From a virus, in UHGV virus genome UHGV-1451962: 64,000 nucleotides of DNA, one strand, 5' to 3'. This document shows, piece after piece, positions 26,965 through 38,877 of the stretch (position 1 is its first letter; every line of letters begins with the position of its first letter). A model generated the notes under the pieces. The model was not told where the DNA came from, did no database searches, and was given only the letters and a program-made list of their open reading frames with translations. The translations under genes and the position numbers were made by a program.

Positions 26965-27402
26965 TTATATAATATGATAATAAGGTTTTTCTTCATCAAA
27001 GATTTTCCATCTAAGAAAATCATCTAAAATAATTCCTATTAGACCTAGAATAAACCAAAGACAACTAAAAGATAAACATATTTGTCCTTTATAATTAAAA
27101 GGTAAATGTGAATAATCCCAAATATTAAGTTGTAATTGAATGTTTAAAATATATCCAAATAAAAATTCTAAACTTGTTATAATTGCGGTTCCAATTAATC
27201 CTTGAGCCAATAAAGACCAATTCCAAGGAATATTTTCATTTAAGCTACCTAAAATTAAAAAAGATAAACCGCCTAAGATAAACATTGACCAATGAGTATT
27301 TCCTGAATGTATATATGTTTTGTAAACAAATTCAATTAACCAGTAAATACTTCCGCCAATCAAAAATAATATAGAATTTCTAAAAAAAGAATTAATTTTC
27401 AT
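26965..27402 (-). CDS. integral membrane protein (function unknown)
   Basis: 145-aa ORF with several hydrophobic helix-length segments; overlaps the upstream minus-strand ORF by 11 nt. Confidence 0.4.
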   Translation of the reverse strand: MKINSFFRNSILFLIGGSIYWLIEFVYKTYIHSGNTHWSMFILGGLSFLILGSLNENIPWNWSLLAQGLIGTAIITSLEFLFGYILNIQLQLNIWDYSHLPFNYKGQICLSFSCLWFILGLIGIILDDFLRWKIFDEEKPYYHII

Positions 27403-28051
27403 ATTTTAATTCTATGGCTTTAATTTCCTTATAATTTTTAGCAGTATAAATTTGTGTTTTATATTGTTGCATTTTTTTATAATAAGGATAAACAAAATCA
27501 GAAATAGCTAAAGCTAAAGCAGTCAAATTTTCAACTGTCCAAGATGTACATTCTTCTTGGCGAGCATGCCATTCTAATCTAGGATTCTCTGCTCCAGCCT
27601 GAACTGCCATAGAATATTGATTCATATTTAGGCTAATTTCTGATTGATCTTCTTCTGTAACTCCATATTGCTTTCCATCAATCCAAGTCAAAGGATTATT
27701 AATGAGGAAATTAGCGAAAGCTTTTTTATTTTCTTCTTGTTTCATTTTTTGATATTCTTCTAAAGAATAGTAATATGTTAATTCATTTTTTTCATTATCA
27801 TATTTATAAAAATTAGGTTCATAATCTTCTGGAATATTACCATCAAAAGATAAGATTCTTACTGCATCAATAGAACCTGTCATATCTGAATTAGCCAAAA
27901 TGAAATGGCTATTGCAATCTGAGCCTATTACTCCTGTAGCTTCACCTTCCGAGCAAGCAATGACAATACTTGGGTTGGATTGTAATTTGATGTAGCGGAT
28001 TTCCGCAAGGATATCGACTACTATATTTTCTCTATTGATTAATAAATACAT
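27392..28051 (-). CDS. hypothetical protein, translationally coupled to the DGR reverse transcriptase
   Basis: 219-aa ORF whose start overlaps the RT stop by 1 nt; no recognisable motif. Confidence 0.4.
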   Translation of the reverse strand: MYLLINRENIVVDILAEIRYIKLQSNPSIVIACSEGEATGVIGSDCNSHFILANSDMTGSIDAVRILSFDGNIPEDYEPNFYKYDNEKNELTYYYSLEEYQKMKQEENKKAFANFLINNPLTWIDGKQYGVTEEDQSEISLNMNQYSMAVQAGAENPRLEWHARQEECTSWTVENLTALALAISDFVYPYYKKMQQYKTQIYTAKNYKEIKAIELKYEN

Positions 28052-29307
28052 TATAATATTTCAACTCCTTTAAATAATGAATGGAAATAATTATCAAGAT
28101 TTTGTATAATATAAAAAGTAGTACCTTTATTTATATGTTCTCTAAAACCTCGATATGATTCTTGAATTTCTATATCAGTTATTTTACCTTGTAGCCAAAG
28201 TTGGTGCATTTTTCTCATTTTTCTATATTGTCGCTTTATTTTCTTTTTAAATGGAGTTTGAATAATTTTATTCGTATTAGTTAAATAAAAATCCCATTTT
28301 AAATATTTAAATGGATTATGTTTATCCGAACGTCTTTTATGAGGATAATTATTTTTATCTAGTTTTATTGGACTAATTTTAATTATTTTAGTTTTTCTTT
28401 TGTTACATTTTAAATGTATTTTATTTAATTCATTTTCAATTTTATTAAGACATTCTTTTAAATAATCTTTGTCATTATGCAAAATATAAATATCGTCCAT
28501 ATAACGTCCATAATATTTTAAATGCAAATGCTCTTTTGCATAATGGTCAATTCCATTTAATGCCAATAAAGCTAATAATTGAGATGCTTGACTACCTAAA
28601 CCTAAACTTTTATGATTAAATTCATAATAAGTACAATTTTTATAAAATTGTTTAGGATAAATTATCTTATATTTTTGTTTTTTGATGATATAGTATTGTT
28701 TATTAGGAATAGGAACTGTATCTTTTGTGACTGAAAAACAAAAGGTATCAATAATATAATCAATTAATTTAAATACTCGTTTTTCTTTAATATAATGTTT
28801 TGCCATTTGCTTTAAAGAATTATGGTCTATTGAATCAAAAAATTTTTGAATATCAATTCTTAAACCATAAAAAGATTTTCCTAAACCATATGTTCTGTGC
28901 GCTGCTTGTAAATGTTTACGCACTTCTAGCAAAGCAAAATCAATTCCTTTTCCTTTTAATGTAGCACAATTATCATAAATAAATTTTGGAGTTAGTTCTG
29001 GAATAAGAACTTGCGAACATAATGTATTTTGTGCCAATCTGTCATAAATATGGCACGCTCTTATATCTCTGGGTTTGCCCCGCTCAATTATACTAAAACT
29101 GTTAAAAACTAATTGTTCATAACTGTCATTTTCTAATTGTTCTTTAAGCGTTAAGATGTTATTTAATCTATTTTCTTCAAAATTAACTGTACTATCTTTC
29201 CATCTTACGTTTCGGCAAATAGAATAAGAAGAATCATAAAAAGCGTCAAAATTACAAAAACGCTGGAAAAGATTTTCTTCTATAAAAAATTCTCCTTTTT
29301 TTATCAT
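28051..29307 (-). CDS. DGR-type reverse transcriptase
   Basis: 418 aa; RT motif 2 (GLRIDIQKFFDSIDH), DGR-type motif 4 (GLGSQASQ = GxxxSQ), catalytic YMDD (YGRYMDDIYIL); lies directly downstream of the TR in the canonical target-avd-TR-RT order. Confidence 0.85.
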   Translation of the reverse strand: MIKKGEFFIEENLFQRFCNFDAFYDSSYSICRNVRWKDSTVNFEENRLNNILTLKEQLENDSYEQLVFNSFSIIERGKPRDIRACHIYDRLAQNTLCSQVLIPELTPKFIYDNCATLKGKGIDFALLEVRKHLQAAHRTYGLGKSFYGLRIDIQKFFDSIDHNSLKQMAKHYIKEKRVFKLIDYIIDTFCFSVTKDTVPIPNKQYYIIKKQKYKIIYPKQFYKNCTYYEFNHKSLGLGSQASQLLALLALNGIDHYAKEHLHLKYYGRYMDDIYILHNDKDYLKECLNKIENELNKIHLKCNKRKTKIIKISPIKLDKNNYPHKRRSDKHNPFKYLKWDFYLTNTNKIIQTPFKKKIKRQYRKMRKMHQLWLQGKITDIEIQESYRGFREHINKGTTFYIIQNLDNYFHSLFKGVEIL

Positions 29308-29588
29308 GCGGTGCTAGATTGTGTGCTCTGACACGCACATCCGCAATCTTAATTAATTATCTGTATAGATAAAAGGTTAAATTCTCCTTAAATGAAAGCT
29401 ATCTATTATAATCTAAGTCTTTTATTTAATATTTCCTCTCCTTCTTGGTTTTAAAACCAATGCGTCCAGAAAATACCAAAATAGATGAGTTATAACATAG
29501 GTTATAATTTTCTGGGGTAACACTTAGTCGTCTCAGTCGATGTCGCCTGCGGCTCCATCACCAGAGACAGTTAGAGTTCTCATCTAAT

Positions 29589-29693
29589 CGGGCGCGAGGT
29601 AATTGTTGTTGTTGTAGTTGGTATTGTTCGCATTACCATCAGAGTTGACATTGCACACATTGTTCGTGTTGTTCGAGTTGTAGTAGCGAGACC
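29589..29693 (-). repeat. DGR template repeat (TR)
   Basis: About 105 nt, 84/105 identical to the VR; 20 of 21 differences lie at plus-strand T (adenine on the transcribed minus strand); non-coding, between the Avd-like ORF and the RT. Confidence 0.85.
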
Positions 29694-29726
29694 CGCGATA
29701 TTTTAGAATTTAACCAAATAAAAAAA

Positions 29727-30191
29727 TTATTTGTATCGCTGAGAATAAATTAGATTATCTCTATTTATTCTATCAAGAAGATTTTGTTTTAATTTGTAAG
29801 TAAGTTTAGCAACATATTTGAAAGATTTATTTTTCTTTTTATTATTTAACCCATATTCATAAATACATAAATCTAATTGCCTTAAAATTGAATCACAATA
29901 TCTTATTGATTTATTAAAGTAATCTGCTCTTTCAACTAAAGTTTTTTTATTTTTTAGATTGATTAAACTAGCAGAGAAAGCATATCCATGTGCGTTTTTG
30001 GCACATTTTAAAATATCTGCACCAAAAGCTGAATAATAGTATGGATTACCAAGAATACCTGGTTTAATATGAGAACCATCATCTAATTCTTGATATGGAC
30101 GAACTAAAATTAATACTTGATGGACTAACTTTCTTGCATCATTTAAATAATCATTTTTAGATTGATGCCTATCTTTTTTTCTTACTGACAA
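29727..30191 (-). CDS. avd: Avd-like accessory variability determinant (putative)
   Basis: 154-aa basic (Lys/Arg-rich) ORF with TTG start after aaaggagg, placed between VR and TR as Avd is in known DGRs; assignment by position and composition only. Confidence 0.5.
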   Translation of the reverse strand: MSVRKKDRHQSKNDYLNDARKLVHQVLILVRPYQELDDGSHIKPGILGNPYYYSAFGADILKCAKNAHGYAFSASLINLKNKKTLVERADYFNKSIRYCDSILRQLDLCIYEYGLNNKKKNKSFKYVAKLTYKLKQNLLDRINRDNLIYSQRYK

Positions 30192-30225
30192 ATTAAAAAC
30201 CTCCTTTAAATAACGTACAAGAAAT

Positions 30226-30254
30226 ATTATACCAGAAAATTTTTAAAAAGTCAA
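30226..30254 (-). promoter_or_regulatory. sigma70-like promoter for the avd-TR-RT transcript
   Basis: On minus strand: TTGACT, 17-nt spacer, TATAAT (exact consensus -10), preceded by an A/T-rich UP-like tract; about 35 nt upstream of the avd TTG start. Confidence 0.5.
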
Positions 30255-30315
30255 AGAAAAAAAATTTTTAGAAAAAATTTTTTTCCCAGAAAAGGTGAAA
30301 GCATTTTTATACTAT

Positions 30316-30341
30316 GGCATTGGCCCTTTTGGGCCAATGCC
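30316..30341 (-). promoter_or_regulatory. GC-rich hairpin 3' of the VR (candidate DGR target-recognition hairpin)
   Basis: Perfect 11-bp inverted repeat ggcattggccc / gggccaatgcc with 4-nt loop, about 30 nt downstream of the target-gene stop; no U-run on the minus strand, so it is not a canonical terminator. Confidence 0.5.
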
Positions 30342-30369
30342 AATATAACCTTACTGTATAACTTTACAG

Positions 30370-32154
30370 TTATCCAATAACGAAAGCGGGCGCGAGGTAA
30401 CGGTAGTTGGCGTAGTAGGTAAAGTCCGCACCACCATCAGAGTCGACACGGCACACATAGCCCGTGTAGTCCGAGTAGTAGTTGCGAGACCGCTCCCAAT
30501 ACCATTTGGAATCTCCTGAACTGTTACCATTAGCATCTTGAATGTTTTTTATACGGGAGCTGTCACTTGTGTAATAATCATAAGCAGCATTATATCCTTT
30601 AGTACATTCTGCATTGGAAACAGTAGAATTAGCAGTGCTGATTGGAGAATAACTATCTAATCCCATTTCTCTCTCAGAAGGAATCCAAACAGTTTCGTTA
30701 TTATAACTAACATTAGCACTTCTATTATCATCCCAATTATCGCAAGTACCTTTAGATACTGTTTTTATAGATGCTTTAGCAGCACAAGCATTATAAAAAT
30801 TTTGACAATAACTTCTAGCATTAGAACCAATCCATTGTGCGCTATTATCACCAAAAGTAGTCATATTCGGCAAGAGATAAACACTATGAAAAGCTAAAGT
30901 TTTATCTCCATCTTTGTCATAGCCAATACAACGCATTGTAACAGCATTTGCTCCTAAAACATTAGTAGATAAATTCATCTTTTTAGTTTTACCAACTAAA
31001 GCTTGACGTTCTGAAGCAGAAGAATTGTTAAGCCAAGACTTTAAGCCAGCCCACCAAGAAGCATCTCCCGCAGCACTCTCATTTCCCCAAGTCCAATATG
31101 TAGCAGTAGCAGTAATTTTTTTATTCGCGGGAGTTGTATAATTGGTACTGGCTGCTATTGATACAGTAATAGTAGCAGTTCCCGCGGTTGTACCATTGCC
31201 TTTAATGGTAATTGTTTTACCGCTTACTGTTGCTGAAGCCACATTAGAATTAGTAGAAGTTACAGAAATTGTACCAGTAGAATTAGTGGTCACAGTAACT
31301 TTTACACCAGTAGAATAATTAGATGCGTCAATAGAAACAGTAGAAGTGCTTAGACTTAATGTTCCTGTTGCTTTTTGAATAGACCAATCAACATTTTTCG
31401 CGGTTGTTGTCTTATCAGGCCATCTGTAATTATTTTTAGGAGTAAAAGTAGCTGTATATTTTCCTGCATTAATTCCCGATGTAGTTCCTCCAATAGTCAT
31501 GTAACTTGTATTATAATTTGACCAATTTGGACTTTGCGAATTGGCGTTATAAGTTAAAGTTCCAGTTTGAGAAGGAATAGGAACTGTTTTTCTTTCTACT
31601 GTTACAGAAAAAGTAGTAGTTTTAGTAATACTATTTTCTGTATAAGAAACAGTAATTGTTTGAGTACCAACTGTATTTAAAACAGAAGGTGAAGTTGTCC
31701 AACCAGAAACAGTAGCGGTTTTACCATCAGAATAAGTGGCAGTAACAGACATTCCGGCAGATTCAAATGTCTCGCCATATTCATAAATTGTCTTAGTTGG
31801 TTTTGTGCTTGTGATGCTGGTTAGTGCATGGATAACAGTAACTGCTTGCTCGGCGGTACAAGTAACTCCTCCTTCAGAGTAAGTAATAGTAACTTTAGTT
31901 ACTCCATCAGTTAAAGGAGAAGGTGTTACAGTATATCCAGTTACCGCAGTAGAAGAAACAACAATATTATCAATGGCATAATTGGCAGTTATAACCATTC
32001 CTGTTGTTTCAAATTCTTGTCCAGCAACGTAAGATGTACGGTTTGGTGGAGTAGTAACTTCAATAGAGTGGAGTGCTATTGAGCTTCCGCCACCTTTTCC
32101 GCCTTGTTCAGTTAAAATGCATTTAACAGGCAAGGTATAAGACCTCCTTATCAA
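30370..32154 (-). CDS. DGR target protein: Ig-like repeat protein with C-terminal lectin-fold-like variable domain
   Basis: 594-aa ORF; tandem Thr/Ser-rich Ig-like segments (e.g. GVTKVTITYSEGGVTCTAEQAVTVIH), then a C-terminal domain containing WIPSEREMGL and the VR; likely true start is the TTG at 32133 (9 nt after aaggagg) rather than 32154. Confidence 0.8.
   Translation of the reverse strand: MIRRSYTLPVKCILTEQGGKGGGSSIALHSIEVTTPPNRTSYVAGQEFETTGMVITANYAIDNIVVSSTAVTGYTVTPSPLTDGVTKVTITYSEGGVTCTAEQAVTVIHALTSITSTKPTKTIYEYGETFESAGMSVTATYSDGKTATVSGWTTSPSVLNTVGTQTITVSYTENSITKTTTFSVTVERKTVPIPSQTGTLTYNANSQSPNWSNYNTSYMTIGGTTSGINAGKYTATFTPKNNYRWPDKTTTAKNVDWSIQKATGTLSLSTSTVSIDASNYSTGVKVTVTTNSTGTISVTSTNSNVASATVSGKTITIKGNGTTAGTATITVSIAASTNYTTPANKKITATATYWTWGNESAAGDASWWAGLKSWLNNSSASERQALVGKTKKMNLSTNVLGANAVTMRCIGYDKDGDKTLAFHSVYLLPNMTTFGDNSAQWIGSNARSYCQNFYNACAAKASIKTVSKGTCDNWDDNRSANVSYNNETVWIPSEREMGLDSYSPISTANSTVSNAECTKGYNAAYDYYTSDSSRIKNIQDANGNSSGDSKWYWERSRNYYSDYTGYVCRVDSDGGADFTYYANYRYLAPAFVIG
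30387..30491 (-). repeat. DGR variable repeat (VR) at the 3' end of the target gene
   Basis: Matches the TR with substitutions almost exclusively at TR adenine positions; encodes the C-terminal ~35 residues (…YYSDYTGYVCRVDSDGGADFTYYANYRYLA…); shared GC-rich 3' boundary cgggcgcgagg. Confidence 0.85.
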
Positions 32155-32250
32155 GAATTATTATTAGAGTTTTAAAACTCCATCATTATTTATAGAATAA
32201 AGTACACCTTTTAGATTAATTGGGAACGTACTTTCCATAAAAAATGTAAA

Positions 32251-32286
32251 ATTGGGAAAAGGATATAAAAATATCCTTTTCCCAAT
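32251..32286. repeat. perfect 16-bp-arm palindrome in the divergent intergenic region
   Basis: attgggaaaaggatat-aaaa-atatccttttcccaat; flanked at 32199-32210 and 32383-32394 by a 12-bp inverted repeat (aaagtacacctt / aaggtgtacttt). Confidence 0.6.
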
Positions 32287-32424: not shown

Positions 32425-34170
32425 ATGGCTGTTCAATGTGTACTTGTCGGAAAAGGCAAGGATGATGTATTTACTGCTGTTTATGGCGAAACTACATTTG
32501 ATAAAGTGTTAAAAGCTTATAATGAAAATAAAGTAGTTCAAGTGATTTATCAAAATCGTATTTATTATTTAGATAATACTACTGTTGTAGATTCTCCTGA
32601 AGCATTTTCTTTTATTTCTGCTTTTAGTAATCAAAATGATGAAGCTGGTGAAATAAAGCATTATGTAATAAGTTTAATGACAGGAGATAGTTGGTCTGGG
32701 CCTTTCTTACAGAAATCTACTCCAGCAACTCACGCGAATACTCATAGTAAAAATGGTGATGATCCACTTACCCCCGCAGATATTGGAGCTATGGAATTAT
32801 CAGAAAATGTTCTTAAACAATCAAATGAAGATATTACTTCTCAAGTAGCGCAAGCTTTATTTGGGGATTTAGTTCCTTTTAGCGGTGGAACCATGACTGG
32901 TTTGTTAAATGTTCTTACTCCTGTTAGAGATAGTAATGCTACTACTAAAAAGTATGTAGATGATGCTTTGAGTGAGAAAATTGGAATGGATGGCATTGGC
33001 GATTTGCATGTATGGAAGAAGACTATAATAACAAAACAGGAGATTCCAGCAAGTTTTACTTTAGGTGATGTACACTCTGGTTCGTTTCGTTTTGTTAGTG
33101 GTGAAACTAATGTGTTGTTAGTAGGTACTCCTAAAGTTAATGAGAGTGGTGTCGTTACCTTAACAAACTCTGCGCAGTATAATTTTAATTATAATTCTTC
33201 ATCTCCTAGTATATCTGATCTGCGAGGACAGTATTGCATGTTTACCATGATAGCCGATCAATTTTCTAGTTTTACTGCCAATAAAGTTTTTTATATACCC
33301 ACTGATGCAAACTATATTTCTTTATCAAGTTCTAAAAATATTACTAAATATCAAGATGTTAATGGTACACCTAAAATTCCTGCCGAAGTAACTACTACCT
33401 ATCCCGCATCTACTAATCCCAATGCGTATCAAGAGGGGAGCGATGCAAAACCAGCAGGATATGTACTTGGTAATGTGATAACAGGTTCATTTTGTATTGG
33501 TAATACAACAGCACCTACGAGAGCTGCTTATTATGTCGCATCTGATATTTCTGTATCTGATAATGGTGTTTTATCTATTTCAACACAAACAAATATAACT
33601 ATTGGTGGTAATTTTTTTGTATCTAGCCGTGATTTAATTGCTGGTAAATTTATACAAATTTATAATAAAGGGTCTATGTCTTCTGTTTTATCTGAACCAT
33701 TCACAACAGTACCAGGCCCAATTATTTATATTCCGAATGATGTAAACTTAACGTCTGGCGGTGATGGAAATTTAAATTTATATATTGATCGCTACCAACC
33801 TATTACTGGCTACGCTGCTATCCCCGCAGGCACCACTATTGAATATCTGGGGAAGTTGGGAGATAAGACTAGGGTAATAATTGGCTCGTATATTGGGACA
33901 GGGGTCTGCGGGGCAGAGAATCCGACCAAAATAAAAACGAGTTTTTTACCGAAACTTGTAGCAATAAATGGAGTAGGAAATACCGGCAGTACGGGCATTA
34001 TTCTGTTTTTTCGAGATATGAACTATGCGTTCTCAGAAATCGGCTCAAGTACCAACTTTAACTTTACTAATATAACCTGGTTATCAGACGGAGTACATTG
34101 GTATTCTAGCAAAGTCCTTATGCAGGGGAATAAGCAGGGGGCAATTTATAAATACATTGTTATCGGTTAA
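32425..34170 (+). CDS. tail fibre protein
   Basis: 581-aa ORF with RBS (aaaggag); contains the tail-fibre motif FSGGTMTGLLNV and an HANTHSKNGDDPLTPADIGA segment; last ~110 codons are visibly GC-richer. Confidence 0.6.
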   Translation: MAVQCVLVGKGKDDVFTAVYGETTFDKVLKAYNENKVVQVIYQNRIYYLDNTTVVDSPEAFSFISAFSNQNDEAGEIKHYVISLMTGDSWSGPFLQKSTPATHANTHSKNGDDPLTPADIGAMELSENVLKQSNEDITSQVAQALFGDLVPFSGGTMTGLLNVLTPVRDSNATTKKYVDDALSEKIGMDGIGDLHVWKKTIITKQEIPASFTLGDVHSGSFRFVSGETNVLLVGTPKVNESGVVTLTNSAQYNFNYNSSSPSISDLRGQYCMFTMIADQFSSFTANKVFYIPTDANYISLSSSKNITKYQDVNGTPKIPAEVTTTYPASTNPNAYQEGSDAKPAGYVLGNVITGSFCIGNTTAPTRAAYYVASDISVSDNGVLSISTQTNITIGGNFFVSSRDLIAGKFIQIYNKGSMSSVLSEPFTTVPGPIIYIPNDVNLTSGGDGNLNLYIDRYQPITGYAAIPAGTTIEYLGKLGDKTRVIIGSYIGTGVCGAENPTKIKTSFLPKLVAINGVGNTGSTGIILFFRDMNYAFSEIGSSTNFNFTNITWLSDGVHWYSSKVLMQGNKQGAIYKYIVIG

Positions 34171-34222
34171 AAAAAGAATTTTAATGTACTACATCAACAA
34201 CCAAAAGGAGGAAATAAATTAA

Positions 34223-34534
34223 ATGTTTTATATTAATTCAATAAAACAAAATAATAATTATGGTAATCCTATGGGTCAATATTTTAAAGACTCAATACAA
34301 TTACCAGATGAATTATTAAACAATTATCTTGAAACAAAAGGATTTTGTAATTTTGAAATTCAAGATAATATTATTACAAAAATAATTGTAAATCAAAATG
34401 ATTTAGATGATTATAATAATAACCATCTAGAGGTTAAACCAGAACCATCAGCAGAGCAAGATATAAATGCAATGTTAGTAGACCAAGAATATAGAATAAC
34501 ATTACTAGAATTAGGTATGAAAGGAGATTCCTAA
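34223..34534 (+). CDS. hypothetical protein (XkdW-like position downstream of tail fibre)
   Basis: 103-aa ORF with strong RBS (aaaaggagg); positional inference only. Confidence 0.35.
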   Translation: MFYINSIKQNNNYGNPMGQYFKDSIQLPDELLNNYLETKGFCNFEIQDNIITKIIVNQNDLDDYNNNHLEVKPEPSAEQDINAMLVDQEYRITLLELGMKGDS

Positions 34535-34668
34535 TGTTATATAGAGTTTTAAAAAGAATGATTGAAGCAGGTCAAACAGAAGGCCTGCAAGAAAAAATAG
34601 ATATTTTCTTTGCGGCTGGCCGCATTACCGCAGACCAATACACTGAACTCACTAAATTATTATCATAA
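34534..34668 (+). CDS. small XkdX-like protein (44 aa), absent from the ORF track
   Basis: ATG overlapping the previous stop (taATG); encodes MLYRVLKRMIEAGQTEGLQEKIDIFFAAGRITADQYTELTKLLS, resembling the small XkdX-family proteins found after tail-fibre genes. Confidence 0.3.
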   Translation: MLYRVLKRMIEAGQTEGLQEKIDIFFAAGRITADQYTELTKLLS

Positions 34669-34689
34669 TTCCCAAAATTTTTGGGAATT
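34667..34689. repeat. near-perfect palindrome immediately upstream of the serine recombinase gene
   Basis: aattcccaaaa-t-ttttgggaatt, overlapping the stop of the 44-aa ORF and 42 nt upstream of the recombinase GTG start. Confidence 0.5.
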
Positions 34690-34730
34690 TTAGATTAATC
34701 GTCTACTAATAATTTTCTTATATAGTAGAG

Positions 34731-35357
34731 GTGAAAAAGGTGTTATATGGTTATGCAAGAGTTTCTTCCCGCGACCAAAATATAGATAGACAAATAATTG
34801 CATTAAAAGAGGTCGGCGTAGAAGAAGAAAATATCTTCATAGATAAACAATCAGGTAAAGATTTTAATAGACCTTCTTATCAAGAATTATTAGAAACAAT
34901 TAAAACAGGAGATATGGTAATTATAAAATCCATAGATAGATTAGGTCGAAATTATTCAGAAATTTTAGAACAGTGGAGAATTATTACTAAAGTTCTGAAT
35001 GTAGATATTAAAGTTATTGATATGCCGTTACTCGATACCTCCTACGGGGATGGTACATTAAATAACTTTATAGCTGATTTAGTTTTACAAATTCTCTCTT
35101 TTCAGGCAGAACAAGAGAGAATTTGTATTAAACAGCGACAAGCAGAAGGAATAGCTGCTGCAAAACAAAAAGGAGTTAAATTTGGCCGACCCCGCAAACA
35201 GCTTCCTTCTAATTTTGAAGATTTATATTATAGATATTTAAATAATGAACCAGTGGATAGATTATCAAAAGATTGTAAAGGATTATCTAAATCTACTTTG
35301 CGGTTGCGACTACAAGAACGTCATTCTAAAGATAAAGCATTGGGTGTAATTATTTAA
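34731..35357 (+). CDS. small serine recombinase (resolvase/invertase family)
   Basis: 208 aa, GTG start after agaggtg; N-terminal catalytic motif YGYARVSSRDQ, then DRLGRN; C-terminal HTH region with GRPRK. Confidence 0.8.
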   Translation: MKKVLYGYARVSSRDQNIDRQIIALKEVGVEEENIFIDKQSGKDFNRPSYQELLETIKTGDMVIIKSIDRLGRNYSEILEQWRIITKVLNVDIKVIDMPLLDTSYGDGTLNNFIADLVLQILSFQAEQERICIKQRQAEGIAAAKQKGVKFGRPRKQLPSNFEDLYYRYLNNEPVDRLSKDCKGLSKSTLRLRLQERHSKDKALGVII

Positions 35358-35414: not shown

Positions 35415-35819
35415 ATGAATTATTATGAATTATGGACACAAATTTGGCAGATTTGTTTAGTCCCCTTATTTGCGGCTTTAACTGCTTTTGTTGTTAAATA
35501 TTTAAATGCTAAAAGTCAAGAAGTTTCTAAAAATATAAATAATGCAACTGCTGAAAAATATATAGAAATGATTAATAATACTGTTACAAAATGTGTTATT
35601 GCTACAAATCAAACTTATGTTAATAGTCTTAAAGAGCAAGGTAAGTTTGATGTAGAAGCTCAAAAGAAAGCTTTTAAACAAACTTATGAAGCAGTTATAA
35701 GTATTTTAAGTGAAGATGCAAAACAATATATTAAAGAAACAACCAATGATTTAAATACGTATTTAACACAGTTAATAGAAGCAGAGGTAAATAAACGTAG
35801 ATTAGAACCAGAAAAATAA
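35415..35819 (+). CDS. membrane-anchored protein (function unknown)
   Basis: 134-aa ORF with N-terminal hydrophobic segment (ICLVPLFAALTAFVV) and charged helical remainder. Confidence 0.4.
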   Translation: MNYYELWTQIWQICLVPLFAALTAFVVKYLNAKSQEVSKNINNATAEKYIEMINNTVTKCVIATNQTYVNSLKEQGKFDVEAQKKAFKQTYEAVISILSEDAKQYIKETTNDLNTYLTQLIEAEVNKRRLEPEK

Positions 35820-35824
35820 TTAAA

Positions 35825-35862
35825 GGCTCCCTTAGTTTTTCGCTAAGGGAGCCTTTTTTTTT
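35825..35862 (+). terminator. rho-independent terminator
   Basis: Stem ggctcccttag / ctaagggagcc with 7-nt loop followed by ttttttttt. Confidence 0.65.
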
Positions 35863-35972
35863 GTCAAAATTTTTTCCAAATTTTTTGACAAAATTGGGAA
35901 ATCGTATGGGAATAAAATTTATATATGTATGGAAGGTAAAGGAAATAAAAAAATTTTTAGAAAGGAAAAATT

Positions 35973-36410
35973 ATGTATCCATACAATAACAATAATTATT
36001 ACCCACAGCAAACAATGCGTCAGCCGCAAACATATATCAATCCAACTCCGCAGATAATGGCGCCTCCGGGGTTGAAAGGACGTATGGTTTCTTCATTAGA
36101 AGAAGCAAGGGCAACAAGTATTGATTTTGATGGCTCTGTTTTTTATTTTCCAGATTTAGCGAATAAGAAAATTTATACAAAGCAAATTAATATGGATGGT
36201 ACTGCTACATTAAATATGTATGAGTTAAAAGAAGGCCCAACTTCTAATAATTCTACTTATGTAACAAGAGAAGAATTTAATAATGCTTTGAATAAAATTC
36301 AAATGAACTTTAATTTGTTAAATAATCAGCAAGAACCACCTGTGGCGCAAGTTCCTCCTCCTGAACCTGCTCCAGAAGAAACGCAAAATGCGCCTACATA
36401 TAAATTTTAA
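35973..36410 (+). CDS. hypothetical Pro/Gln-rich protein
   Basis: 145-aa ORF with proline-rich N- and C-termini. Confidence 0.4.
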   Translation: MYPYNNNNYYPQQTMRQPQTYINPTPQIMAPPGLKGRMVSSLEEARATSIDFDGSVFYFPDLANKKIYTKQINMDGTATLNMYELKEGPTSNNSTYVTREEFNNALNKIQMNFNLLNNQQEPPVAQVPPPEPAPEETQNAPTYKF

Positions 36411-36421
36411 GGAGGAAAATA

Positions 36422-36664
36422 ATGCAAGCAAATCCAATGCAAATTTTATCAATGATTAAAGGAGGTAAAAATCCTCAACAATTAGTGATGAATATTTTAG
36501 AGCAGCAAGCACAAAATAATCCTATGGGTGCTAACTTATTACAGCTAGTTAAAGATAATAAGACTGCGGATATTGAACAAATTGTTAGAAATTATGCCAA
36601 AGGTCAAGGCATAGATTTCGACAAAGAATTTAATGCTTTTAAACAAATGTTAGGCATTAAATAA
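36422..36664 (+). CDS. hypothetical small protein
   Basis: 80-aa ORF with strong RBS (aaggagg). Confidence 0.4.
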   Translation: MQANPMQILSMIKGGKNPQQLVMNILEQQAQNNPMGANLLQLVKDNKTADIEQIVRNYAKGQGIDFDKEFNAFKQMLGIK

Positions 36665-36692
36665 TTTTATAAAACAAAAGGAGAATAAAAAA

Positions 36693-37529
36693 ATGTTTAA
36701 TACTGCAAATTCTAGCTATTCTTTAGCTGATATCGCCGCAGCTACCGGCGGTAATCGTTGTAATGATGATGGTTTTGGTGGAGGCAATGGCTGGTGGGTC
36801 ATCCTTCTGTTCTTATTCATGATGAATGGATGGGGCTGGGGTGAAAACGGCTATGGTCGTAGCGTGTCACCAATGGGAGGTACAACTACCCGTGAAGAAA
36901 TTGCATATGGCTTTGATATGAATGGCTTGGAGAACTCTGTTCGTGGTATTCAAAATGGCCTATGTGATGGTTTTTATGCTCTTAACAATAGTCTTTTAAC
37001 CGGTTTTGGCAATCAAGCTTTGAATACTCAGCAAGGTTTTGCTAGTACCGATAATGCTATTTGTACTCTTGGTTATCAGACTGCTCAGTTGGCTAATGGT
37101 ATCACTTCTGATATGAACCAGAATACTAATACTATTACTCTTGGTATGAATAATGGTTTTAATGGTGTTACTGCTGGTTTAACTGCTTTGGGTACACAGT
37201 TACAGTCTTGTTGCTGTGAAACCGGGCGTGCTATTGAGCGTGGTTTTAGTGACTTAAACTATAACTTAGCTACTCAGTCTTGCGACACTCGTAGAGCTGT
37301 TCAAGATAGCACTCGTGAAATCTTAGATTTCTTAACTCAGGATAAGATTGCTTCCTTACAGTCCGAGAATCAGACTTTGAAATTTGCGGCTTCTCAGCAA
37401 GCCCAAAATGCTTATCTGGTTAGCGAACTTGGTCAGAAAGCTCCTATCCCCGCTTATGTAGTGGCTAATCCTTATTGCAACTGCGGTTCCGCAAATTCTT
37501 GCAATAGCTGCTGCTCTAGCATTTATTAA
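36693..37529 (+). CDS. hypothetical Gly/Trp-rich, Cys-rich protein with atypical codon usage
   Basis: 278 aa; N-terminal GNGWWVILLFLFMMNGWGWG hydrophobic segment, C-terminal Cys cluster (CNCGSANSCNSCCSS); by-eye GC-richer codons than neighbours. Confidence 0.4.
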   Translation: MFNTANSSYSLADIAAATGGNRCNDDGFGGGNGWWVILLFLFMMNGWGWGENGYGRSVSPMGGTTTREEIAYGFDMNGLENSVRGIQNGLCDGFYALNNSLLTGFGNQALNTQQGFASTDNAICTLGYQTAQLANGITSDMNQNTNTITLGMNNGFNGVTAGLTALGTQLQSCCCETGRAIERGFSDLNYNLATQSCDTRRAVQDSTREILDFLTQDKIASLQSENQTLKFAASQQAQNAYLVSELGQKAPIPAYVVANPYCNCGSANSCNSCCSSIY

Positions 37530-37553
37530 TTAAATTTGGAGGATAACTAATTT

Positions 37554-37976
37554 ATGGAAATTACAGCCAATGCTGCTCAATCAGTTGCAGCCAATCAAAA
37601 TGTTCTTATGACTGATACAGTAGTTGGTGGAAGTTGTTCAATGGTTCATCGTAATGGTAGTGGATTAGTTACTTTGCGCGGCCTGGCTAGCACCCAGTGC
37701 CGCGCTCGTTTTAGAGTAACTTTTGGCGCTAATATAGCTGTTCCTACTGGTGGAACCGCAGGTGCTATTTCTTTAGCTATTGCTATTAACGGCGAACCTG
37801 TTGCTACAACAACCATGACAACTACTCCAGCCGCAGTCGATCAGTACAATAACGTGTTTAGTAGTATCTTTTTAGATGTTCCTAAAGGTTGTTGTTCTCA
37901 GATTAGTATAAAAAATATTAGCACTCAAACAGTTAGCGTTCAAAATGCTAATCTAATTGTTGAACGTGTTGCTTAA
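37554..37976 (+). CDS. hypothetical Thr/Ala/Gly-rich beta-type protein
   Basis: 140-aa ORF with RBS (ggagga); GC-richer codon usage like the preceding gene. Confidence 0.4.
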   Translation: MEITANAAQSVAANQNVLMTDTVVGGSCSMVHRNGSGLVTLRGLASTQCRARFRVTFGANIAVPTGGTAGAISLAIAINGEPVATTTMTTTPAAVDQYNNVFSSIFLDVPKGCCSQISIKNISTQTVSVQNANLIVERVA

Positions 37977-37990
37977 TTTGGAGGTACAGT

Positions 37991-38545
37991 ATGGAAAGAC
38001 TAAAAAATATGAGAAATTGTTTAATGGCTTGTGTTGAAGGGGAATTGGCCCATCTTGATACTGTTGATGCTCATGAATTAGGTGAAGCAGTAGATATGAT
38101 AAAAGATTGTGAAGAAGCGATGTATTATCATACTATTAGAAAAGCTATGGAAGAGTCTGATTATAATATTAATAATAGAGATATGGATAAACATCATGGT
38201 AGAATGTATTATCCTACTCCTAGAATGTATTATACGATTGATCCTAAAATGAAGAAACATATAAAAGATGAGGATGATTATGTATATTATGATGATATGT
38301 ACATGATGCCTTATAAGCCTTTAGAAAAAATGCGGGATAAGCGTGAAGGTCGTAGTCCTATAAGCCGCAAAACTTATATGGAATCAAAAGAAATGCACAA
38401 AGATAAGCCCACTCAGCTAAAAGAGTTAGAACACTATATGCAGGAATTAGCTAGTGATATAGTGGAAATGATAGAAGGTGCATCTCCCGAAGAAAAACAA
38501 ATGATACAACAACGCATTAATTCTATTTCCGCTAAAATACAATAA
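37991..38545 (+). CDS. hypothetical protein
   Basis: 184-aa ORF with RBS (ggaggt); Met/Tyr/Asp-rich charged protein. Confidence 0.4.
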   Translation: MERLKNMRNCLMACVEGELAHLDTVDAHELGEAVDMIKDCEEAMYYHTIRKAMEESDYNINNRDMDKHHGRMYYPTPRMYYTIDPKMKKHIKDEDDYVYYDDMYMMPYKPLEKMRDKREGRSPISRKTYMESKEMHKDKPTQLKELEHYMQELASDIVEMIEGASPEEKQMIQQRINSISAKIQ

Positions 38546-38877
38546 TGTATACAGTAAATGTAAATGGTGAAACATGGACAATAGAATTTGTTTCTTCTTC
38601 TAATTATAATTTAATGAGAAGTGATGGAACTTATACTATTGGAGTTTGTGATGATGAAACTAAAACCATTTATATAGATAAAAATTTAAATAATAGTTAT
38701 TTGCAAAAAGTTTTGTGCCATGAGATAACCCATGCTGCAATGTTTAGCTATGATATAAATTTATCCCTTGAACAAGAAGAATTATTAGCTGATTTATTAG
38801 CAACATATGGAGAAGAAGTAGTACAAAAAGCAAATATATTATTTAAACGTATAAAAGAAAATAGGGGAAGCTATTAA
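38545..38877 (+). CDS. small HExxH-motif protein (putative zinc metallopeptidase-like)
   Basis: 110-aa ORF; contains VLCHEITHAAMF (HExxH); start overlaps the upstream stop. Confidence 0.4.
   Translation: MYTVNVNGETWTIEFVSSSNYNLMRSDGTYTIGVCDDETKTIYIDKNLNNSYLQKVLCHEITHAAMFSYDINLSLEQEELLADLLATYGEEVVQKANILFKRIKENRGSY

Follow-up and report, generated by a model that had tools for sequence, protein, structure and literature searches.

The stretch analyzed here (the window) comprises 64,000 nucleotides of the virus genome UHGV-1451962, and within it we examined a small recombinase gene, rec (positions 34740 to 35357, plus strand), which lies between a fiber locus and a holin gene. Judged from its sequence and predicted structure, the product, Rec, belongs to the small serine recombinases of the Sin/beta (Gram-positive plasmid resolvase) type and retains an intact catalytic set, and it is very probably the protein that binds two arrays of short half-sites, site A directly in front of rec and site B past the holin gene. 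A perfect palindrome at site A would then be the putative docking site of Rec itself. The reading that we favor, and that we regard as roughly an even bet, is that Rec is a resolvase-like enzyme with res-like or operator sites that converts replicated phage DNA to monomers and regulates its own gene, with no inversion of fiber sequences. A Gin/Cin-type fiber switch is not supported by the sequences compared, which dismisses the tempting annotation of an invertase beside fiber genes as a host-range switch. The analysis places a Sin-type enzyme at a conserved position in widespread, uncultured SPbeta-like gut phages of 137 to 148 kb, many of which have recoded TAG, and prompts one to ask what need such phages have for an enzyme of this type.

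The open reading frame (ORF) from 34731 to 35357 (plus strand) is present in the window, and the first-pass annotation, which had reported a recombinase of the resolvase/invertase family with a YGYARVSSRDQ motif and a C-terminal helix-turn-helix (HTH), was confirmed in these respects. Rec matches the Pfam family Resolvase (PF00239; E value = 3e-30) over profile positions 2 to 144 of 145, as well as PHROG 125 ("DNA invertase"; 7.5e-51), and its sequence includes YGYARVSSRDQ and SIDRLGRN as catalytic motifs, together with the FGRPRK arm. The AlphaFold2 model (mean predicted local distance difference test score, 87.8) comprises a catalytic domain, a long E helix (residues 106 to 143), a minor-groove arm with the Gly-Arg-Pro (GRP) motif, and a three-helix C-terminal domain (predicted helices 159 to 167, 172 to 178, and 184 to 200). 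Both halves of the protein thus have the parts expected of a small serine recombinase, a class of proteins with a total length of about 180 to 210 amino acids. The length of 208 amino acids given earlier corresponds to a start at GTG 34731, but the start is more likely GTG 34740, giving 205 amino acids, because GTG 34731 falls within the ribosome-binding site AGAGGTGA (34727 to 34734, plus strand, as read from the sequence), which lies at a normal distance from 34740, and because most database copies have 205 amino acids and homologues open with M/V-LYGY. At this ribosome-binding site, GAGGTGATAAAGGTG is kept in 32 of 32 clade relatives. In 30 homologues with 67 to 94% identity, residues S9, S10, D66, R67, and R70 and the arm residues G149-R150-P151 are invariant, which would be hard to explain unless catalysis by Rec is under selection; the full catalytic set is also present in 38 of the 40 clade loci checked, the exceptions being the loci designated L003 and L004.

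Among proteins of known structure, Rec is closest in sequence to Sin (PDB 2r0q; E value = 7e-36, 126.7 bits), followed by gamma-delta resolvase (5e-23, 84.7 bits), Tn3 resolvase (1.5e-21, 79.9 bits), and Gin (2.5e-14, 56.4 bits). Identity to Sin is 43 to 45% across the catalytic domain, and the alignment runs without gaps through the Sin-specific stretch (Rec 97 to 130; Sin 95 to 128). When residues 4 to 157 of Rec are aligned to residues 2 to 146 of gamma-delta, Rec is 9 residues longer there, in the helix D' region. Both the closest sequence and this extra segment relative to gamma-delta place Rec in the Sin/beta group. Foldseek ranked full-length resolvase-DNA complexes at the top (1gdt, 2r0q, and 5cy1, all at about 1e-12; for 1gdt, 4.6e-12 with a template modeling score of 0.62 to 0.68), in agreement with the sequence search; a PDB sequence search with the C-terminal domain of Rec alone gave no match. 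Sin, from Staphylococcus aureus plasmids (PDB 2r0q and 3pkz), and relatives such as beta of pSM19035 thus share with Rec the extra segment, the GRP arm, and the three-helix DNA-binding domain, and in both cases the sites adjoin the gene and contain paired half-sites spaced by about one turn of the helix, some of them direct repeats (as in Sin site II). Unlike Rec, which is encoded by a 137-kb phage, Sin resides on plasmids, and its half-site sequence is unrelated. Tn3 and gamma-delta resolvases resemble Rec in fold, in having a binding site just upstream of the recombinase gene, and in the layout of accessory site III (12 + 1 + 12 bp, compared with a palindrome of 11 + 1 + 11 bp here), but they are more remote in sequence, and the phage locus has no transposase, no three-site 114-bp res, and no recognizable site I spacing.

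Site A (34667 to 34689) is a perfect 23-bp palindrome, AATTCCCAAAA-T-TTTTGGGAATT (11 + 1 + 11 bp), that contains two converging half-sites, TTCCCAAAA, 12 bp apart and would accommodate a Rec dimer. Its left end overlaps the stop codon of the 44-amino-acid ORF upstream. The palindrome described earlier is therefore real, but it is perfect rather than near perfect, and it ends 41 nt before 34731 (42 had been noted) and 50 nt before 34740. A first-order Markov model predicts 0.23 perfect palindromes per 64 kb when the arms must be 11 nt or longer; therefore, the chance of finding one in the 71-nt spacer is about 3e-4. That intergenic spacer (34669 to 34739, plus strand) is invariant between strains, with 0 of 71 columns variable among 13 distinct strain sequences, compared with 6 to 16% of columns in the flanking genes. 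A pair of elements of 7 to 9 bp, 12 bp apart, occurs at the same place upstream of rec in every clade member, and in most members a third element follows at a distance of about 22 bp; the first half-site is flipped in L003 and L004. As RNA, site A is a weak hairpin (-10.4 kcal/mol, z score of -2.5). A sigma-70 promoter scan gave no excess over shuffled sequence and nothing convincing at site A. The exact palindrome pattern had no match in IMG/VR and 62 matches in JGI metagenomes, mostly unrelated environmental sequences and thus uninformative, and a similar palindrome lay upstream of only 4 of 118 more distant homologues, against a background of 1%, so that the site is not family-wide.

Downstream of rec, the partner gene is conserved. 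The holin gene (35415 to 35819, plus strand; PHROG 13712, holin, 2.9e-32) lies 57 nt past rec on the same strand, no terminator was predicted between the two, and their adjacency is kept in loci L001 to L032. A strong intrinsic terminator (35822 to 35856, plus strand) with a 15-bp stem followed by T9 (-25.1 kcal/mol, z score of -6.5) closes the rec-holin unit. Directly after it and upstream of the next operon, site B (35861 to 35912) holds five half-site-like elements: TTGTCAAAA (plus strand, 35861), TTTCCAAAT (plus, 35873), TTGTCAAAA (minus, 35883), TTCCCAATT (minus, 35892), and TTCCCATAC (minus, about 35904). All relatives have a homologous array in this position, just after the holin terminator, with 2 to 5 copies of the element among clade members.

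The half-site common to both arrays is 9 bp long, 5'-TT(C/G/A)CCAAAA-3' or TT(N)CCAAAA in general form, with specific outer bases and an inner A-tract. Half-sites of serine recombinases usually have this composition, with the GRP arm lying in the minor groove of the A-tract. Strict TTGG[N]AA matches number 4 to 6 in the approximately 375 nt of regions A and B, versus 0 to 2 in 1,030 nt of rec and holin coding sequence, and intergenic copies in the window are confined to 32.2 to 35.9 kb. No further half-site arrays were found in 81 kb of genome.

Between phage clades, the variable base of the half-site changes at A and B together, and it changes with residue 184 of Rec, the clade-differing position in an otherwise invariant S-X-S-T-L-R-L-R stretch and the first residue of the predicted helix 3 (184 to 200); by manual alignment and AlphaFold2 helix boundaries, it corresponds to gamma-delta R172. 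Counting strict TTGG[N]AA matches in regions A and B combined, the species in the window, with Lys184, has GGG three times and GGC not at all, whereas eight loci of the L001, L005, L010, L004, L248, and L153 groups, with Glu184, have GGC three to five times and GGG not at all. Locus L246 (Leu184) has GGT five times and no GGC, L249 (Lys184) has GGG twice and GGC once, and L250 (Ala184) has GGC twice. Contacts of Lys to G, of Glu to C, and of Leu to the methyl group of T are standard between side chains and bases. Because the variable base tracks the first residue of the recognition helix in this way, Rec is very probably the binder of arrays A and B; the co-variation is good, though not conclusive, evidence of binding. 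It also suggests a testable recognition code of one residue and one base, in which residue 184 reads the variable base of TT(N)CCAAAA, and such natural specificity variants of small serine recombinases are of interest for retargeting these enzymes as genome tools.

In the mechanism that we favor, the C-terminal HTH of Rec would read the 9-bp half-site, the inner A-tract of which suits the GRPRK minor-groove arm, and Rec dimers would sit on A and B. Occupancy of A, in front of rec and the holin gene, would control the expression of both, and Rec would recombine copies of the site array on replicated phage DNA in a res-type reaction, thereby converting genome dimers and multimers to monomers as Sin does for large theta-replicating plasmids. 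Sin-type enzymes resolve dimers of such plasmids (PMC9943657). In Tn3, site III consists of two 12-mers with one base pair between them, and site I has 3 bp more in its spacer; in Sin, site II is built as a direct repeat, and a flexible linker lets resolvase dimers fit such spacings (PMC9943657; PMC2428073). Site A (11 + 1 + 11 bp) and the 12-bp direct pairs of site B look like accessory or operator sites rather than crossover sites, because their spacing matches that of Tn3 site III and not that of site I. The observations cover the family and fold of Rec, its catalytic residues and conserved position, the conservation of the sites and their co-variation with the protein, and the lack of inversion variants, whereas transcriptional control through binding, the identity of the crossover site, and multimer resolution as the reaction are inferred. 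Autoregulation through the palindrome and multimer resolution, both suggested earlier as alternatives, fare better than inversion: a conserved, co-varying half-site pair fits an operator or a res-like accessory site, but resolution is only plausible. A functional analogue, though of unrelated fold and mechanism, is Cre/loxP of phage P1, a phage-encoded site-specific recombinase with a site adjoining its gene that monomerizes or cyclizes a replicon of about 100 kb; Cre is a tyrosine recombinase, and the plasmid-prophage lifestyle is known for P1.

Several observations weigh against this interpretation. The co-variation comes from about three to four independent lineages and is not absolute, given the single GGC in L249, the GGC kept with Ala184 in L250, and one GGT each in L010 and L153, both of which have Glu184. 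At the regulatory interface of Sin, residues F52 and R54 are replaced by T and K in Rec. No crossover (site I) spacing could be confidently identified in the A and B arrays, which lie 1.2 kb apart with 12-bp spacing throughout, and a real Sin locus is laid out differently; upstream of rec there is no arrangement of site I, HU-binding spacer, and site II, and a second array lies beyond the holin gene. In L003 and L004, which come from two samples, a Cys codon (TGT) replaces the catalytic Arg of YGYARVSS in an otherwise intact ORF, and the site arrays are kept. In more distant phages, 3 to 4 direct repeats spaced at exactly 11 bp precede the counterpart of the operon past site B, and their rec gene, which has a different DNA-binding domain, is found 5 to 7 kb from there and lacks a site of its own upstream. 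On this evidence, array B could be mainly a promoter or transcription-control element. Finally, no dimer junction, deletion, or inversion product was seen in the assemblies, although consensus assemblies cannot show resolution.

The idea of a tail-fiber invertase, raised in the first-pass annotation, did not hold up. Rec groups with plasmid and transposon resolvases, an outcome that the annotation itself had named as counting against an invertase, no flanking inverted repeats were found, and more than 40 contigs share one orientation. The gene order described earlier was confirmed: a fiber-like gene of receptor-binding type (32425 to 34170, plus strand; 581 amino acids), which as far as can be seen is not a recombinase substrate, is followed by ORFs of 103 and 44 amino acids (34223 to 34668, plus strand) and then by rec. 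The two small ORFs exist, but their labels as XkdW-like and XkdX-like have weak family support, since the 44-amino-acid ORF matches Phage_XkdX only at an E value of 0.19 and the 103-amino-acid ORF has no Pfam match; the former does match PHROG 2310, of unknown function (1e-14). A search for inverted repeats over 24 to 38 kb returned only AT-rich matches of at most 49 nt with 70 to 82% complementarity, which we judged to be due to chance, and half-site scans for Gin-type flanking inverted crossover sites gave only arrays A and B and an unrelated conserved hairpin. A single gene order and orientation was seen throughout 20 near-identical places and 32 related loci (Rec 68 to 74% identical); the 20 places (10 + 10 shown) stand for 24 contigs per look-up, for a total of more than 40 contigs with the 32 loci. 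Across strains and clades, no inverted alternative fiber C terminus was found, and the only minus-strand matches were a terminator palindrome and a stretch of about 290 nt in L013. We considered the latter as an inversion and rejected it, as it is a lectin domain like that of the target of the nearby diversity-generating retroelement (DGR), shuffled into a plus-strand fiber gene. The earlier statement that no inverted alternative fiber cassette is visible thus holds across more than 40 related contigs.

Diversity in the fiber gene takes another form. The N-terminal part of about 200 amino acids is conserved, and the C-terminal two-thirds (33023 to 34200) is hypervariable and mosaic between strains, with no DNA similarity among strains that are otherwise 96 to 98% identical and with protein lengths from 581 to 638 amino acids. 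The variants are one-strand mosaics joined at conserved islands, e.g., IPAGTT.TYPVSTNPNAYQEG and YQPVTGYAAIPAGTTIEYLGKLGDK. Many contigs end in this hypervariable part. This pattern is, on sequence comparison, that of ordinary mosaic exchange of receptor-binding proteins at conserved islands. Host-range variation in this phage comes from the DGR and from exchange of mosaic fiber C termini and not from inversion. Adjacency of rec to the fiber gene is not conserved: in relatives, other genes or none separate rec from the DGR target gene, and in L003 and L004 rec comes almost directly after the DGR target. What is conserved instead is the rec-holin pair with its strong terminator, together with the two site arrays.

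The phage itself is, on its gene content, an uncultured phage of human-gut Firmicutes, about 137 kb long and related to Bacillus phage SPbeta. Copies of Rec that are at least 98% identical occur in many human-gut samples on contigs of about 137 to 140 kb (135.8 to 139.9 kb) that lack host flanks. One of these contigs, ERZ28662716 scaffold_29 (137,488 bp; L245 and L244), encodes several proteins identical to those of the window and has Pfam matches to the SPbeta-specific YomU tube protein, YomV, YomW, YomO, YonB, YonD, YorF, and YorH. The replication and nucleotide module includes Pol III alpha, a DnaB-type helicase, RecJ, gyrase A and B, ligase, ThyX, NrdD/NrdG, dUTPase, and guanylate kinase, and the window phage has a tape-measure protein of 2,871 amino acids. 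This gene content was read from L245 and L244 and from 1 to 26 kb and 39 to 64 kb of the window. No close cultured phage was found. One relative was binned with a metagenome-assembled genome of Eubacterium. In 185,579 species genomes, the only relative with at least 68% identity was a phage-sized contig of 147.8 kb, and no integrated prophage copy was found in them, which is absence of evidence only. The window phage uses the standard code, and tRNA and Rfam scans of the 64-kb window returned nothing. In most genes of L005 to L032, L153, L246, and L248 to L251 (Rec 68 to 78% identical; 75 to 148 kb), TAG is a sense codon aligned to Gln. In-frame TAG codons in these recoded relatives number 3 to 7 in rec and 5 to 9 in a RuvC-like gene, and they also occur in the reverse transcriptase and structural genes but not in the dUTPase gene. 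Translation of rec therefore needs the phage code switch, and this recoding argues against an early role of Rec in establishing lysogeny.

Other explanations of the locus can be weighed on these data. Rec might be a regulator first of all, mainly a DNA-binding protein, with A controlling rec-holin, B controlling the operon at 35973 to 38877, and recombination secondary or vestigial. Both arrays do lie at promoter or operator places, each behind a terminator or the end of a gene and ahead of another operon; the 12-bp half-site spacing has the geometry of an accessory site and not of a crossover site; distant phages keep the array by the same operon with rec elsewhere; and L003 and L004 retain the gene and its sites despite the Arg-to-Cys change. 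Tn3 resolvase, for comparison, represses transcription at res. Since the catalytic set is invariant or nearly so in the 30 homologues and 38 of 40 clade loci and no promoter could be convincingly defined at site A, we hold this reading to be unlikely. A related, dual-purpose version, in which Rec was recruited as a dedicated regulator of the lysis region across this lineage of SPbeta-like gut phages and keeps catalysis for a separate reaction, is likewise improbable. If it were true, occupancy of A and B, possibly with looping of the 1.2 kb between them, would gate the holin gene and the downstream operon and so set the timing of lysis, and on several occasions a single substitution at residue 184, with which the recognition helix opens, would have altered the specificity together with one matching base change in all the sites. 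We consider it decidedly unlikely that the palindrome is instead a weak terminator or attenuator ending the fiber operon, with another phage factor reading the motif and the target of Rec elsewhere in the genome. The palindrome starts at the upstream stop codon, is followed by TTTT, and folds as RNA; clade changes in its arms mostly keep the pairing, and perfect palindromes serve as terminators elsewhere in this phage. However, real terminators of the phage reach -22 to -26 kcal/mol with runs of T7 to T9, no T-run follows the palindrome in L010 and L003, the first arm is flipped in L003 and L004, and at site B the motif occurs as direct repeats unable to form a hairpin. The tracking of the variable base with residue 184 and the invariance of the entire 71-nt spacer, beyond the stem, also point away from a terminator.

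The remaining alternatives assign Rec a different recombination reaction. A small serine integrase or excisionase of the Ralstonia phiRSM type, with site A as attP and a role in lysogeny, seems very unlikely to us. Temperate relatives of SPbeta integrate, and DGR-bearing phages are usually temperate; a tblastn search returned 97 Ralstonia phage records, and the site adjoins the recombinase gene. Nevertheless, no integrated copy was found and the contigs are phage sized without host flanks, heavy TAG recoding, as seen for rec in relatives, is not what one would expect of an enzyme that must act ahead of the code switch, and arrays of multiple half-sites are typical of res or operators rather than of minimal att sites. 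Inversion by a Gin/Cin/Hin-type enzyme of a fiber segment, a promoter, or the rec-holin cassette, for which we see little room, would agree with the name of PHROG 125, with the hypervariable fiber gene next to rec, and with the two site arrays flanking rec-holin. Gin (Mu), Cin (P1), and Hin belong to the same superfamily and share features with the present case, being phage borne, adjoining tail-fiber genes, and using half-sites with specific outer bases and an inner A-tract, and we take TTCCCAAAA to resemble the hix and gix half-sites; DNA inversion is known for beta recombinase, which belongs to the Sin group. Yet Gin is the most distant of the solved relatives, inverted repeats around the locus do not rise above the AT-rich background, neither an invertible segment nor an alternative fiber cassette is found in more than 40 contigs of one orientation, and mosaic exchange at conserved islands accounts for the fiber diversity. 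Fis is a gamma-proteobacterial protein, and to our knowledge a Fis-dependent enhancer mechanism would not be expected in Firmicutes. Programmed excision, in which A and B would act as direct res-like sites and Rec would excise a 1.2-kb rec-holin circle, is the explanation to which we give the least credence. The same half-site arrays flank rec-holin in the same relative order in every clade member, but the cassette is retained in every contig, no hybrid joint of A and B was seen, losing the holin would abolish lysis, and deletions beside site B in L025 and L016 end in microhomology and not in half-sites.

These deletions were also examined as candidate site-specific events. At about position 11154 in L025 and about 3772 in L016, relative to L010, 2 to 3 kb of the operon beside site B is missing; the junctions lie in microhomology (GTCAA), and we rejected the candidates, which on this evidence appear to be illegitimate deletions or assembly artifacts. 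The operon past site B (35973 to 38877) is largely uncharacterized. It encodes a Pro/Gln-rich protein of 145 amino acids, a 278-amino-acid protein with a Cys-rich C terminus (PHROG 16490), a 140-amino-acid protein (PHROG 20016, 1e-53), and a 110-amino-acid HExxH metallopeptidase-like protein (DUF6782/IrrE-like, 2e-6). The repeat arrays upstream of this operon in distant phages (L065, 15542 to 15570; L074, 17778 to 17806; L078, 16903 to 16953) consist of TGTCGC or G(A/T/G)CGG and are followed by a T-run and TATGC(C/A)AAAAT, and the repeat sequence differs with the C-terminal domain of the recombinase.

A hairpin at 32251 to 32286, which contains TTGGGAA, was considered as a left-hand recombinase site of a fiber cassette and rejected, as its TTGGGAA is kept in all clades whatever the motif at A and B. 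This strong hairpin (-22.5 kcal/mol), also present in L004, L005, L010, and L251, occupies the divergent stretch that separates the DGR target gene from the fiber gene. Read on the minus strand, it precedes a T-run and the start of the DGR target gene, and every clade retains TTGGGAAAAGG...CCTTTTCCCAA. Its role may be that of a leader, an attenuator, or an insulating terminator. An extra TTGGGAA at 32220 occurs in the window only.

The DGR, which is complete, occupies 26965 to 32154 of the window on the minus strand, with a reverse transcriptase gene at 28051 to 29307 and an Avd-sized ORF of 154 amino acids at 29727 to 30191. Its template repeat (TR; 29586 to 29693) is matched by a variable repeat (VR; 30384 to 30491) at the 3' end of the target gene (30370 to 32154), which encodes a 594-amino-acid protein with a Big_3 domain. 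Of 22 TR/VR mismatches, 21 fall on TR adenines, and several metagenome contigs break exactly at the VR.

In two database ORFs, P0099 (L251, 1679 to 2419) and P0084, both on short contigs, an upstream gene is fused in frame to rec near codon 4 to 8. The fusion partner is a fiber N terminus in P0099 and a dockerin-like domain in P0084. Such fusions could reflect defective variants, chimeras, or read-through by gene calling in recoded genomes, and L251, a 2.9-kb contig in which a fiber N terminus is joined at about codon 8 of rec, was set aside as a defective variant or an assembly chimera. In some strains, conserved genes are split by homing-endonuclease ORFs: a GIY-YIG ORF in nrdD of L088 (13927 to 14628) and, just outside the window in the source-like contig L244 (4865 to 5809), a LAGLIDADG-like ORF with a PhoH fragment on either side.

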